Shown here: positions 6,629 to 43,789 of the stretch, piece by piece
Numbering within the stretch: the stretch's first letter is position 1
Layout: every line of letters begins with the position of its first letter
Virus record (IMG/VR): IMGVR_UViG_3300045988_058447
Location: 1-44,193 of that record
Source: a virus
DNA: 44,193 nt
Direction: 5' to 3' (one strand)
The notes under the pieces: generated by a model
Database searches by the model: none
What the model saw: only the letters and a program-made list of their open reading frames with translations
Told to the model about the DNA's origin: nothing
Translations under genes and position numbers: made by a program

Positions 6629-6665
6629 ATTATAAAACAGTATTTCAGAGGATTTGTACCAATTT
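6629..6665 (-). promoter_or_regulatory. Late-type promoter P1: AAATTGGTACAAAT - 17 nt - TATAAT
   Basis: Minus strand reads AAATTGGTACAAATCCTCTGAAATACTGTTTTATAAT. It lies 19 nt upstream of the RBS and ATG of the DUF4417 gene. Confidence 0.65.
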
Positions 6666-6672
6666 AAGGCAT

Positions 6673-6700
6673 GAAAAAAGAGAGGTTGTTTTTCCTCTCT
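6673..6700 (-). terminator. Rho-independent terminator of the wHTH/TM moron
   Basis: Minus strand reads AGAGAGG-AAAAACAA-CCTCTCT followed by TTTTTTC. Confidence 0.75.
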
Positions 6701-6712
6701 TCTCAAAGTATC

Positions 6713-7063
6713 TTAATGTTTAATATCATTTTTCAGTTGATTCAAATATCTTCTTGTGCTCCATACCGCGAATACAGAAGGTATAATAACCACAATTGCA
6801 GTGGCTATCCAAAATGAAACCCTTGTTATGTCTCCAGCAAACACCATATATATTTGCAGCAGGCTTCCAAAAACTATGTACAAAATTCCGCATCGCGCAT
6901 AGTGTCTTTGTGTAAGATTGGTTTTCCACCCATCTCCAATTCCTCCCAACGAACTAGATCTTGCAATATCTTTTAATGTCATTTTTAGTACACATAATAC
7001 CGAAAATATTGTTCCCCACATTATTTCTATAATGGCAATTACTGACAACAACTTTGTATACAT
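6713..7063 (-). CDS. Small integral membrane protein (about 3 TM segments)
   Basis: 116 aa with three hydrophobic stretches (aa 5-26, 57-76, 83-103). The start is 3 nt after the wHTH stop. Confidence 0.6.
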   Translation of the reverse strand: MYTKLLSVIAIIEIMWGTIFSVLCVLKMTLKDIARSSSLGGIGDGWKTNLTQRHYARCGILYIVFGSLLQIYMVFAGDITRVSFWIATAIVVIIPSVFAVWSTRRYLNQLKNDIKH

Positions 7064-7066
7064 GCT

Positions 7067-7321
7067 TTACTCCTCGCTTTCTTTTACTAATTTATACCCA
7101 ATTGGGCGAATTGTTCTTGGTTCCCCTTCTCGCAGAGTTATATAGCCTTTTTCCATTAACTTTTTAAGCCTATAATGCACACATGACTTTGATTTTGTGT
7201 TTACTCCTTTACAGATTTCTTGAAAAGATGGAGAAATTAAATTTTCTTCCATGTGCTTCACAATATACTCATACATTTCTCTTTCTTTATCCGTAAGCTC
7301 GTTGTTTGGCTTTTCTCCCAT
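7067..7321 (-). CDS. Winged-helix DNA-binding protein resembling the LexA N-terminal domain, with no peptidase domain
   Basis: 84 aa: TDKEREMYEYIVKHMEENLISPSFQEICKGVNTKSKSCVHYRLKKLMEKGYI. AAGGAGG RBS present. Confidence 0.55.
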   Translation of the reverse strand: MGEKPNNELTDKEREMYEYIVKHMEENLISPSFQEICKGVNTKSKSCVHYRLKKLMEKGYITLREGEPRTIRPIGYKLVKESEE

Positions 7322-7343
7322 TTGCTACCTCCTTATATGCCTA

Positions 7344-7372
7344 ATGATAAAACATGTGTTCGATTATGTCAA
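7344..7372 (-). promoter_or_regulatory. Consensus sigma-A-type promoter of the wHTH/TM moron (TTGACA-17-TATCAT)
   Basis: Minus strand reads TTGACATAATCGAACACATGTTTTATCAT: -35 at 7367..7372, -10 at 7344..7349. Confidence 0.7.
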
Positions 7373-7382
7373 ATGGAAATTT

Positions 7383-7649
7383 TTACCACACCATCCGCAT
7401 CTGGCCGCTCTGTTCCTCTTCGATCCGCCCTAACCTCTGCTTAATGATCCGCTGTACGATCCTGCGGCGGCGGTAGAAACAATTTCGAGATATTGGGAGA
7501 ATTCCGTGGTGTGCTTCCATAAGATCATAGCTTGTCCCCTTAATAATGGATTCTGCCAGATAGTCCGCAATAAATGCATCTACACTCTGGCAGATCTCGT
7601 ATATTTCTTTTTCGTCCACTAAACATTCCCCTTTTACATAACTAAGCAA
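7383..7649 (-). CDS. Small putative transcription regulator (possibly ArpU/RinA-like late activator)
   Basis: 88 aa. The C-terminal SRNCFYRRRRIVQRIIKQ resembles the basic helix of phage late activators. It overlaps the recombinase stop by 8 nt and sits just upstream of the late genes. Confidence 0.3.
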   Translation of the reverse strand: MLSYVKGECLVDEKEIYEICQSVDAFIADYLAESIIKGTSYDLMEAHHGILPISRNCFYRRRRIVQRIIKQRLGRIEEEQSGQMRMVW

Positions 7650-8655
7650 CGTTTGCCATCTTACGATCTGCTAAAATGTCGTCACAGATGTAATATTTTT
7701 CCGTGACTGCTGTGTTTGCATGCCCCAGTCTGTGCGATACATATAAAATATCCTTTGTTCGGAGATATTCCCTAGATGCAAACGTCTTACGATAGACATG
7801 CACTGTGGCAACATTCCGGCATCCGGCACGCTCTGCGATCTCTTTCGCGATTTCTTCGATTGTTGCCTTACACAGCAGTTTCCCGGTTTCCACATTCCGG
7901 CTATTGAGGAATATATATCCTTCTTTTCTGCCATTTACATACTGTTCCAAGGCTACCCGACAATCCGGTGTCATAAAGCAAGTACGCCATTTACTGCTCT
8001 TTTCTCCGTAAATCTGGATTTCCCCACGTTCAAAGTCCAGATTTTCAATCTTAAGGTTACAGATCTCTCCCACACGAGGACCGGCACTAAGCATCAGTTC
8101 CAGAAGTGCTTTTTCACGCAAAGTCTTTAAGACGTTCTTGCATTTAGACACTTCATAATCAGATAAGCGTTTCTTGCGCTTCTGCGGGATTTTGATCTTG
8201 TCAATATCCCAGTATATGTCCTTGTCGATATGGTGTTTCCGGTACGCCCACTTGACAAATGCGGATAAACATTTCTGAATATTTCCGGCGTATGACTTCG
8301 AGATCTTGTCCCGATACTGCCTTATGGCAATATAATCCATTACGTCCTGTCCGGTCATAACGGCATAATGAAGTCCAGTTTCATTAAAGAATTTCTTTAA
8401 TGTGTACAGGTACATTTCAATCGTTTTCTCTTTCCTGCCGACTGCGATCAGATCAACGTGATATCTGCCGAGAATCCATTCATTATCCCTTACGTCCGTG
8501 GTTGGCAGCGTTTCGTCCGGCACCAAATGAAAACCTTTCATGCGATACGCAAGTGCTGTTTTCAAGCGTTCCGTCCCTTCGGCATCCAGATAACCAGTCA
8601 TGTCATATATAAGATCATTCACAAATTCTCCCTTTGTCATATAACTACCCTCCAA
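7642..8655 (-). CDS. Tyrosine recombinase (XerC/D / phage integrase family), second copy in the genome
   Basis: 337 aa with GPRVGEICNLK (Arg I), HVYRKTF (H-x-x-R) and LGHANTAVTEKYY (His...Tyr nucleophile). Confidence 0.8.
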   Translation of the reverse strand: MEGSYMTKGEFVNDLIYDMTGYLDAEGTERLKTALAYRMKGFHLVPDETLPTTDVRDNEWILGRYHVDLIAVGRKEKTIEMYLYTLKKFFNETGLHYAVMTGQDVMDYIAIRQYRDKISKSYAGNIQKCLSAFVKWAYRKHHIDKDIYWDIDKIKIPQKRKKRLSDYEVSKCKNVLKTLREKALLELMLSAGPRVGEICNLKIENLDFERGEIQIYGEKSSKWRTCFMTPDCRVALEQYVNGRKEGYIFLNSRNVETGKLLCKATIEEIAKEIAERAGCRNVATVHVYRKTFASREYLRTKDILYVSHRLGHANTAVTEKYYICDDILADRKMANVA

Positions 8656-8663
8656 TTCTAGTC

Positions 8664-8756
8664 TTTACTACAGTACGTGCGAGTGCTATAATGACAATAG
8701 GTTGAGAGTCTTAGCACTCATGAGCCGGGCATTGCAGTGTCCGGCTCTTATTTTTT
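8664..8756 (+). ncRNA. Candidate plus-strand small transcription unit (promoter + about 60-nt RNA + terminator)
   Basis: TTTACT (8664..8669) - 17 nt - TGcTATAAT (-10 at 8687..8692). Terminator GAGCCGG-12 nt-CCGGCTC + TTATTTTTT at 8722..8756. No plus-strand CDS is present. Confidence 0.3.
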
Positions 8757-42895: not shown

Positions 42896-42966
42896 TCGGC
42901 ATTGAGGGAATCGAACCCCCGGCAGTGCTCCCGATTGATTAGCTGCGGTTTACCAAACAAATGCCG
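42896..42966 (-). other. 71-nt tRNA-like element (tRNA pseudogene or structural mimic)
   Basis: Minus strand reads CGGCATT-TG-...-GGGGG-TTCGATT-CCCTC-AATGCCG-A. It has a perfect 7-bp acceptor-like helix and a canonical T-arm, but the D and anticodon arms did not fold canonically when checked by hand. Confidence 0.35.
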
Positions 42967-42970
42967 GAAA

Positions 42971-43019
42971 TAAAAAAACACGGGGCCAGCACCCTAGATC
43001 TCTCTAAGGAACTGACCCC
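42971..43019 (-). terminator. Strong rho-independent terminator of the lipoprotein moron
   Basis: Minus strand reads GGGGUCAG..CCUUAGA-GAGA-UCUAGGG..CUGGCCCC followed by GUGUUUUUUUAUUU. The G-U pairs make it specific to the minus sense. Confidence 0.75.
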
Positions 43020-43063
43020 GCTTGGTCGTTACGCATAGCCATTTCTATGCGCCATATATAAGA

Positions 43064-43459
43064 TTATGGTTTTGTTTCCACACTGACAGGCTGTTCGGTA
43101 TGGAAATACATTTTGTAGTGGTATGGATCCGTATGTGTTCCAGTAATATCTTCCACAACATACATTGTATTTTCATTCAAATACACATAGTTCTTCTTGT
43201 ATGTGTTTTTCCCGGTCTTTACGGTACATACCAACTCTCCATTATCATTATTGGATATAGACATATAACCTTCTGTTTCAAGAATGATTGTATCAGTTCT
43301 GGCATTGTAAACAGTAAGTTTTCTCTCGGACTCGAAATAATCCGCCTGCTTGGAAATATTGTAATTTGCCTTATCAGCTTCGCTACATCCCGCAAACAGC
43401 ATACTTGCGGCAAGAGATAACGATACAGCAATAACAATGAACTTCTTGTTTTTTGTCAT
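43064..43459 (-). CDS. Lipoprotein (moron inside the morphogenesis module)
   Basis: Signal peptide plus lipobox: MTKNKKFIVIAVSLSLAASMLFAGC. Confidence 0.7.
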   Translation of the reverse strand: MTKNKKFIVIAVSLSLAASMLFAGCSEADKANYNISKQADYFESERKLTVYNARTDTIILETEGYMSISNNDNGELVCTVKTGKNTYKKNYVYLNENTMYVVEDITGTHTDPYHYKMYFHTEQPVSVETKP

Positions 43460-43593
43460 TTGAGTACCTTCTTTCTTATTTCATACACCTTAATTCCGTC
43501 TTTGGAAGCGTGGATTTCCACAGATGCACCGCTCTTGATAGCCTTTGCTATCTGCTCTGTTTTTTCTGCAATTAGTGCCTGTATTTTATCCAT
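43456..43593 (-). CDS. 45-aa protein translationally coupled to the lipoprotein gene
   Basis: GGAGGTGG RBS. Product is MDKIQALIAEKTEQIAKAIKSGASVEIHASKDGIKVYEIRKKVLK. The stop overlaps the lipoprotein ATG (ATGA). Confidence 0.5.
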   Translation of the reverse strand: MDKIQALIAEKTEQIAKAIKSGASVEIHASKDGIKVYEIRKKVLK

Positions 43594-43620
43594 GCCCCAC
43601 CTCCGTTTCTCTACTATATT

Positions 43621-43659
43621 ATTGTAACATGGGATTTTAAAAGATTTGTACCAATTTTA
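43621..43659 (-). promoter_or_regulatory. Late-type promoter P3: AAATTGGTACAAAT - 17 nt - TACAAT
   Basis: Minus strand reads AAATTGGTACAAATCTTTTAAAATCCCATGTTACAAT. Confidence 0.6.
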
Positions 43660-43660
43660 G

Positions 43661-43693
43661 AAATTGAAAAAGTGCCTATATTTCAAGGCACTT
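43661..43693 (-). terminator. Rho-independent terminator between tandem promoters P2 and P3
   Basis: Minus strand reads AAGUGCCU-UGAAAUAU-AGGCACUU followed by UUUCAAUUU. Confidence 0.65.
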
Positions 43694-43744
43694 TCCACGA
43701 TTATGAATAAAAAGGAGGTTCACAAATGGTTAGAAAACATCTGC
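43661..43744 (-). ncRNA. Candidate sRNA of about 80 nt, transcribed from P2 and ended by the 43661..43693 terminator
   Basis: Promoter and terminator bracket a region with no plausible minus-strand ORF. It contains a single-stranded-looking CCUCCUUUUU tract. Confidence 0.4.
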
Positions 43745-43750
43745 AATATT

Positions 43751-43789
43751 ATATTACTACATTTCCTCCGAATATTTGTACCAATTTAA
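43751..43789 (-). promoter_or_regulatory. Late-type promoter P2: AAATTGGTACAAAT - 17 nt - TAATAT
   Basis: Minus strand reads TTTAAATTGGTACAAATATTCGGAGGAAATGTAGTAATAT. The box overlaps the MuF stop codon. Confidence 0.6.

Follow-up and report, generated by a model that had tools for sequence, protein, structure and literature searches.

At the middle promoters of phage T4, MotA and AsiA act by sigma appropriation, for which two proteins are needed and in which the MotA box is centred near -30. Mor and C of phage Mu, Ogr of P2 and Delta of P4 bind as dimers to dyad-symmetric sites at -43/-55. At the head of the late region of phage lambda, the late promoter PR' is followed by a short terminated transcript (PR'-6S RNA-tR'). 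The Ltr superfamily is a group of late transcriptional regulators of Gram-positive siphophages and comprises RinA, ArpU and LtrA/B/C (PMC3152322, PMC3753634, PMC13123087). Here, we analyse the IMG/VR virus record IMGVR_UViG_3300045988_058447, the whole stretch of which (44,193 nucleotides, nt) is referred to as the window. We focus on a 10-nt box, TTGGTACAAA, found at the heads of its late modules, and on p78, a 78-residue protein encoded in the same genome. The four copies of the box probably serve as the upstream element by which a class of late promoters specific to the phage is recognised, and p78 and the box likely work as a late activator and its cognate promoter box, as judged from comparisons of related sequences.

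The promoter logic of this locus appears closest to that of the T4 MotA boxes. In both cases a single asymmetric box takes the place of the -35 element, the -10 is of the host type and lies at a fixed distance, and many promoters of one genome have the box in common. In contrast to T4, which is a lytic phage of a Gram-negative host, the box is centred near -35 and there is no homology between the proteins. Neither homology to MotA nor a co-activator of the AsiA type was found, p78 being without any Pfam or PDB homology.

Four copies of the box precede the late modules

The candidate regulator and the predicted promoters are the following.

7383..7619, minus strand: p78, candidate box-reading late regulator, 78 residues from GTG 7619 (the mechanical open reading frame, ORF, reaches TTG 7649)
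6629..6664, minus strand: predicted late promoter P-pack, box 6662..6653, 18 nt, -10 TATAAT at 6634..6629
43751..43786, minus strand: predicted late promoter P1 (short RNA), box 43784..43775, -10 TAATAT at 43756..43751
43621..43656, minus strand: predicted late promoter P2 (head-tail), box 43654..43645, -10 TACAAT at 43626..43621, with TG before the -10
29917..29952, minus strand: predicted late promoter P-lys, box 29950..29941, -10 TATACT at 29922..29917, UUCG hairpin 29972..29953 upstream
6675..6704, minus strand: terminator hairpin with T-run (-14.1 kcal/mol), immediately upstream of P-pack, closing the early and moron transcripts

The window contains four exact copies of TTGGTACAAA, each of them on the minus strand (5' ends at 6662, 29950, 43654 and 43784), versus a mean of 0.11 copies and a maximum of 1 in 100 dinucleotide-preserving shuffles. 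All four copies are intergenic; the intergenic share is 6.3% of the genome, and the chance of such a placement is about 1.6e-5. Each stands on the coding strand where a late module begins, and is separated from a -10-like hexamer by 18 nt, comprising a T or C and 17 further nt. Six copies with one mismatch are also found, all of them in coding sequence and none with a -10 element at the right distance. The statement of the first-pass annotation of this DNA that there is no other full copy is thus correct.

The same annotation had described four minus-strand sites sharing the box, a constant spacer of 17 nt, a box different from the canonical TTGACA, and the genes behind three of the sites. All of this agrees with our results, the 17 nt being counted after the T or C and its coordinates being correct within 1-3 nt at the upstream edge. 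For the short-RNA site, its description stands with regard to the box and the TAATAT at 18 nt, but its -10 is ambiguous, since a perfect TATAAT at 21 nt from the box (43753..43748) competes with it.

The genes downstream of P-pack encode a DUF4417 protein (Pfam E 1e-59), three GGRG proteins, the terminase, the portal and the minor capsid protein, across the circular junction. Those behind P2 comprise a 45-aa gene, a lipoprotein gene (Phage_VG64), and the scaffold, capsid and tail genes, and P-lys is followed by a three-gene lysis cassette. No ORF lies directly behind P1, where about 78 nt ending in a strong hairpin and a U-run are found instead. At three of the four box promoters, the -10 is 25-28 nt from the start codon, with a Shine-Dalgarno sequence in between. 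Hairpins are located just upstream of three of the four boxes: those at 6704..6675 and 43696..43667 are terminator-like with U-runs, and the third, at 29972..29953, is GC-rich with the UUCG. No TTGACA -35 is present at the late box promoters of the window. The full consensus of the box is AA(A/T)(T/A)TGG(T/C)ACAAAT, and in the predicted promoters it is positioned at about -40 to -30, where the -35 hexamer would be.

The box, its place and its spacing are conserved in related phages

The nearest named relative of the window is Roseburia phage Jekyll (locus L119 of our set), and p78 homologues were also located in Lachnospiraceae genomes. Jekyll exhibits the same architecture with a one-base variant of the box, (T/A)TGGCACAAAT, which is found once upstream of DUF4417 and as a tandem pair around a unit composed of the short RNA and its terminator (boxes at 24437, 16463 and 16329). 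In addition, a fourth Jekyll site at 43839 (minus strand) comprises TGGCACAAA, 18 nt and TATAAT. It lies upstream of a 53-aa ORF (43616..43777) divergent from the integrase; this ORF may be an excisionase-like gene under the late regulon.

More generally, over 100 contigs of related phages retain the box, its place and the 18-nt distance to a sigma-A-like -10, the spacers being variable. Of 135 related loci encoding a p78 homologue, 127 have the P-pack site downstream of that gene, as a box, 18 nt and TAnnnT within 2.6 kb. p78 is the last conserved early gene, and in Jekyll-type loci the box promoter begins about 30-150 nt past it. Among 54 relatives, nearly all have a P2-type box upstream of the scaffold gene, most of these scaffold-protein loci carry the tandem pair, and the tandem arrangement of P1 and P2 is kept in 19 distinct relatives. 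P-lys is less widespread: of 80 relatives of the first lysis gene, 17 carry its box, in each case as TTGGTACAAA with TATACT. No box promoter is found in the lysis modules of Jekyll type, including before the Jekyll holin. These modules (L119 3030..3100 on the minus strand, L324-L330) have a conserved long hairpin upstream, at the junction where the window lineage has the box promoter.

The spacing was assessed on 82 distinct box contexts chosen by the 10-mer alone in related loci, with no requirement for a -10. TAnnnT is present at exactly 18 nt in 77 of them, and in none at 16, 17 or 19 nt; the remaining five resemble coding sequence. A further set of 68 sites with unique spacers was picked with a pattern that fixes the box and the -10. 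In this set the columns of the spacer vary, and the flanks left free by the pattern show conservation, with AA at -4/-3 and a T after the box. A T-run at -18 to -13 relative to the box is common in relatives. The -10 consensus in relatives is TA(T/A)AAT, which is sigma-A-like. A collection-wide pattern search for box plus -10 returned mostly chance matches and few relatives, and nothing relevant emerged when the literature was searched for the box sequence.

Two flavours of the box occur in relatives, TGGTAC and TGGCAC, and the flavour is uniform within each genome, as predicted for a trans-acting reader encoded in the same genome. With the conserved box, place and spacing, this supports the earlier proposal of one dedicated late regulon with a phage-encoded reader.

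Two residues of p78 track the box flavour

The p78 residues N46 and C47, at the start of the long C-terminal helix, track position 5 of the box. All 39 proteins exhibiting PISR-NC are associated with TGGTAC, and all 88 non-NC proteins (with the residue pairs RS, RG, RH, SH, SN, TH or RT) are associated with TGGCAC. When three further genomes are included, the association holds for 132 of 132 loci, representing 80 distinct proteins. On a neighbour-joining tree of these 80 proteins, built with the two residues masked, the flavour switched at least three times.

Three cases stand out. The first is that of L031 (3300029857_000395), with NC and three TGGTAC boxes, and L387 (3300045988_002657), with RT and three TGGCAC boxes. 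Their p78 proteins are mutual nearest relatives, 78% identical, with near-identical first ~50 residues and divergence from residue 46. Their tandem promoter regions are identical at 164 of 177 positions, yet both boxes therein are switched. The protein of L153/154 belongs overall to the NC clade, but exhibits TH together with R51K, and its box is ATGGCACAAG. The protein of L390, from a Roseburia metagenome-assembled genome (MAG), is only 58% identical to the window p78 and keeps both NC and TGGTAC. What the sequences show directly is the motif, with its statistics, conservation and fixed spacing, and this covariation. As the box base changes together with two residues of p78, p78 is likely the late-gene switch, and the start of its long helix is the probable specificity determinant.

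The flavour also bears on the symmetry of the site. The box can be written as a pseudo-palindrome, ATTnGTACnAAT, which we considered as a dimer operator. As in Mu Mor/C and P2 Ogr/P4 Delta, we are dealing with a small phage protein, promoters with a poor -35 and late operons to be switched on. Unlike at their dyad-symmetric sites, only one half-site changes with the flavour here; a symmetric dimer is therefore unlikely, and an asymmetric reading is favoured.

p78 as the candidate reader of the box

The first-pass annotation had named an 88-residue protein, encoded immediately upstream of the first box, as the obvious candidate. This protein is indeed the only one found to track the box flavour; its real length is 78 residues, with the start at GTG 7619 behind AAAGGGG, and the conserved core likewise comprises 78 residues rather than 88. 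The p78 family is small, with 378 clusters at 90% identity and, in a set of 1.84 billion proteins, 60 representatives at 50% identity. The AlphaFold (AF2) model built from a diverse alignment is a four-helix bundle (predicted local distance difference test score, pLDDT, 86) with helices at residues 3-13, 18-27, 31-38 and 45-76, which include a helix, a turn and a long basic helix. SYDxLEAxxGxLPISRxxFYRKRR is conserved as the family signature, and its pattern, judged by eye, resembles a helix-turn-helix (HTH) with a long basic recognition helix. The isoelectric point (pI) is 6.7, with 12 K+R versus 12 D+E, and only the C-terminal helix is basic. The only link to PHROGs is a weak one, to phrog_11237 (function not assigned), which is matched by 21 of 28 diverse family members.

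Several features of p78 recall the Ltr proteins. It is a small phage protein whose gene closes the early region, just upstream of the genes for packaging; its proposed role is to turn on packaging, morphogenesis and lysis; its target promoters have a sigma-A-type -10; and its DNA specificity is predicted to reside in the C-terminal part. The existence of Ltr cognate pairs that do not cross-react is paralleled here by the two box flavours. In contrast, RinA matches the Pfam families DUF1492 and Sigma70_r4, whereas none of the 28 p78-family members does, and no domain of the ArpU type is found. Ltr proteins are basic and have about 100-140 residues, whereas p78 has 78 residues and a pI of 6.7. 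Their sites are two to four direct repeats located further upstream, whereas the box is a single, unrepeated element of 10-11 bp at -40 to -30. Finally, three or four box promoters per genome, including that of the short RNA, compare with one terS promoter in Ltr phages. Several defining features of the Ltr superfamily are thus missing, and p78 is not a demonstrable member of any described family.

With regard to the mechanism, p78 probably occupies the box in lieu of a -35 element and brings in the host sigma-A polymerase to read the -10; promoter activity, direct DNA binding by p78 and the polymerase contact are what we infer here. p78 would bind the box as an asymmetric, monomer-like reader, with residues 46-47, where its long basic C-terminal helix begins, contacting the base pair at position 5. 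It would thereby substitute for -35 recognition and recruit the sigma-A holoenzyme, either by class-II-type activation or by a form of sigma appropriation. The four units (packaging, the short C/U-rich RNA, head-tail and lysis) would be switched on jointly. The hairpins before three of the promoters would insulate the late units from early and prophage read-through, and would thus keep them silent.

A number of observations weigh against this mechanism. No match was found for 28 diverse family members in Pfam (E<=1), for p78 in a PDB sequence search, or, at a significant level, for its model in PDB or BFVD with Foldseek; hhalign of the family against RinA gave 0.5%. The evidence for the HTH is the predicted fold and the residue pattern, and the protein as a whole is not basic. 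The 10-11 invariant bp exceed the usual reach of one HTH, so that a second reader is possible: the second contact may be made by sigma region 4 on ACAAAT, by the alpha subunit's C-terminal domain (alpha-CTD) on the upstream AA, or by a second p78. The paper on Jekyll contains nothing on late transcription. In L169 and L170 (IMG/VR 3300029760_000312 and 3300029828_000029), the p78 homologue has a different C-terminal tail and is followed by a ParA-like gene; a box is absent within ~6 kb, and a sigma-A-type promoter (TTGACT-18-TATAAT) precedes the terminase; this lineage may have escaped from the box/p78 system. Lastly, the host species, as a third variable, might conceivably account for the covariation.

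The best-surviving alternative to the activator reading, although an unlikely one, is that p78 is the promoter-recognition part of an alternative sigma factor, either as a split or minimal sigma that acts with another subunit, from the phage or the host, or by re-specifying region 4 of sigma-A, so that a sigma-like complex would read the box. The box is located exactly at the -35 position with a fixed spacer, and it is a single asymmetric site, as expected for sigma region 4. The best hhalign register, which is insignificant, places the p78 helix on the helix of RinA that matches Sigma70_r4, and the weak Foldseek matches in BFVD (E 7-8) include a sigma-70 region 2 protein and a DUF1492 protein. 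However, every one of these structural and profile matches is non-significant. The -10 consensus is that of sigma-A (TATAAT/TAAAAT), which indicates that sigma-A region 2 is probably still used. A Pfam scan of 40 window proteins, p78 among them, reveals no sigma domain, Sigma70_r2 and Sigma70_r4 match neither p78 nor its family, and 78 residues are too short for both. Of the two possibilities offered by the first-pass annotation, an activator or a sigma-like factor, the activator therefore fits better, given the sigma-A-like -10, the 78 residues and the lack of a sigma domain.

It is considerably less probable that a host factor, a Lachnospiraceae sigma or regulator, reads the box and that the flavour and the p78 residues both merely follow the host species. 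The binary partition of the flavours would fit such a factor, as would the resemblance of TGGCAC to the -24 element of sigma-54 promoters. However, the sigma-54 -12 element (TTGC) is present at the required distance in none of the sites and the other flavour reads TGGTAC, so a sigma-54 promoter was rejected. To our knowledge, the box fits no Firmicutes sigma consensus. Moreover, both flavours occur in Roseburia-associated elements (C in Jekyll, T in the Roseburia MAG L390), and near-identical late regions carry differing flavours, each matching the resident p78.

A predicted short RNA behind the first box of the tandem pair

43667..43744, minus strand: predicted short RNA of about 78 nt (start inferred), with a 5' hairpin, the unpaired C/U-rich stretch CCUCCUUU, and the terminator 43696..43667 with a U-run

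The terminator of the short RNA also ends the packaging operon. In the predicted folds, 19 distinct relatives keep the layout: the 5' hairpin is variable, the C/U-rich stretch is unpaired and most often reads CCUCCUUU, and a terminator comes last. The terminator stem covaries (GUGCC/GGCAC, GCGCC/GGCGC, GAGCC/GGCUC, ACACC/GGUGU) around the conserved loop UUGAAAUA. No Rfam match was found in the window, the short RNA included. CCUCCUUU is identical to the anti-Shine-Dalgarno core, and the unit looks like a late, box-driven small RNA (sRNA).

Two observations concern the surroundings of this RNA. A 13-nt perfect complement to its seed (AAAAAGGAGGTTC) is found at 13611..13623 (minus strand), in the Shine-Dalgarno region of a 26-aa hydrophobic ORF (MDKVYQIIFEILCGLIVNILYDYLKK) near 13604; this ORF could encode a small toxin-like peptide under sRNA control, or the match could be due to chance. 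On the plus strand, a 52-aa ORF (43726..43884) behind AAAGGAGG, the complement of the short RNA, was rejected as a gene, as it is interrupted after 3 codons in Jekyll and has no start codon in L191.

That a late promoter and a short terminated transcript open the late region is reminiscent of the PR' unit of lambda. On this basis, p78 might be a Q-like antiterminator loaded at the box, with the P1 RNA as an analogue of PR'-6S RNA-tR', given that the P1 transcript ends at a strong terminator and that hairpins precede three boxes. We regard this as highly improbable. A new box promoter directly follows each terminator, which is the opposite of a read-through design, and with a second box promoter behind the terminator no antitermination is needed. 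The box is located at the -35 of promoters that have none of their own, which indicates that initiation itself needs help. In addition, p78 is far smaller than known Q proteins and, unlike the lambda transcript, the short RNA looks like a trans-acting, C/U-rich sRNA.

Genome context and neighbouring genes

The window ends, 1..55 and 44139..44193, overlap exactly over 55 bp; the assembly is therefore circular and complete, at 44,138 bp. It is the complete circular 44.1-kb genome of a temperate siphophage of Lachnospiraceae. The lysogeny module is on the plus strand. On the minus strand, the order is the early promoter, the replication and modification genes, a tyrosine-recombinase-like gene, p78, the moron and the terminator, followed by box 1 with packaging, box 2 with the short RNA, box 3 with head/tail and a hairpin, and box 4 with lysis. 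The other features of interest are the following.

43786..44193 and 1..889, minus strand: minor-capsid gene, spanning the circular junction
24898..24926, minus strand: canonical early promoter TTGACA-17-TATAGT in the immunity region
6713..7372, minus strand: accessory moron between p78 and P-pack, with promoter TTGACA-17-TATCAT at 7372..7344, then the terminator
7321..7067, minus strand: 84-aa LexA_DNA_bind winged-helix protein of the moron (E 1e-13)
7063..6713, minus strand: 116-aa membrane protein, second moron gene
7642..8655, minus strand: second tyrosine recombinase (Phage_integrase and SAM-like N domain), overlapping the p78 ORF start

The canonical TTGACA of the early and moron promoters shows that the host sigma-A reads a normal -35 here, and that the late class is distinct. 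The LexA-like gene is an accessory moron outside the late regulon: that its product would be the late activator is the least credible of the alternatives, since, despite its significant LexA_DNA_bind match, its position between p78 and the first box, and the precedent of gp6 of tectivirus GIL01, a LexA homologue that activates a late promoter (PMC6182141), it occurs in only 17 of 134 related box-carrying loci, is missing from the complete Jekyll genome even though all the boxes are there, and has its own canonical sigma-A promoter and terminator, as a moron would.

The second tyrosine recombinase is distinct from the integrase at 27456..28610 (plus strand) and is found in 11 of 134 related loci. 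The idea that the box is a recombination site for this enzyme was rejected, as the gene is so rarely present and the copies of the box are direct repeats tied to -10 hexamers. Two further features are observed among the packaging genes. Three consecutive paralogues of 92, 148 and 109 aa (4911..5977, minus strand), with an N-terminal GGRG(S/T/W)xSG and with no family assigned, lie between DUF4417 and the terminase. The 639-aa terminase (2964..4883, minus strand) exhibits, from its translation only, an apparent N-terminal HTH and small-subunit-like segment fused to the large subunit.

Significance for late-gene control in gut phages

A more far-reaching proposal, which we put forward tentatively and consider somewhat doubtful as a whole, is that p78 founds a sequence-orphan family of 78-aa "-35 surrogate" proteins with a two-residue flavour code, in which N46-C47 would specify T, and R/S/T followed by S/G/H/N/T would specify C, at box position 5. 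A single asymmetric HTH-like reader would dock on the host sigma-A polymerase and redirect it to the box of 10-11 bp. The same proposal would include a late sRNA with the anti-Shine-Dalgarno-like seed CCUCCUUU. The link of NC and RS with T and C predicts a residue-to-base contact. If true, the two-residue code would mean orthogonal late regulons in co-resident phages of human-gut Lachnospiraceae, and the two flavours might be of use as compact promoter/activator parts, orthogonal to each other, for Clostridia.

In phages of the dominant gut Firmicutes, the control of late genes has hardly been studied. The box and p78 constitute a cis/trans pair in well over 100 gut viral contigs and in the inducible prophage Jekyll of R. 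intestinalis L1-82 (10.1101/575076), a cultured species, and the box is a simple marker of late operons for metagenomic phages. The late activators of Gram-positive siphophages may include proteins that are missed by Ltr, Pfam and PHROGs annotation.

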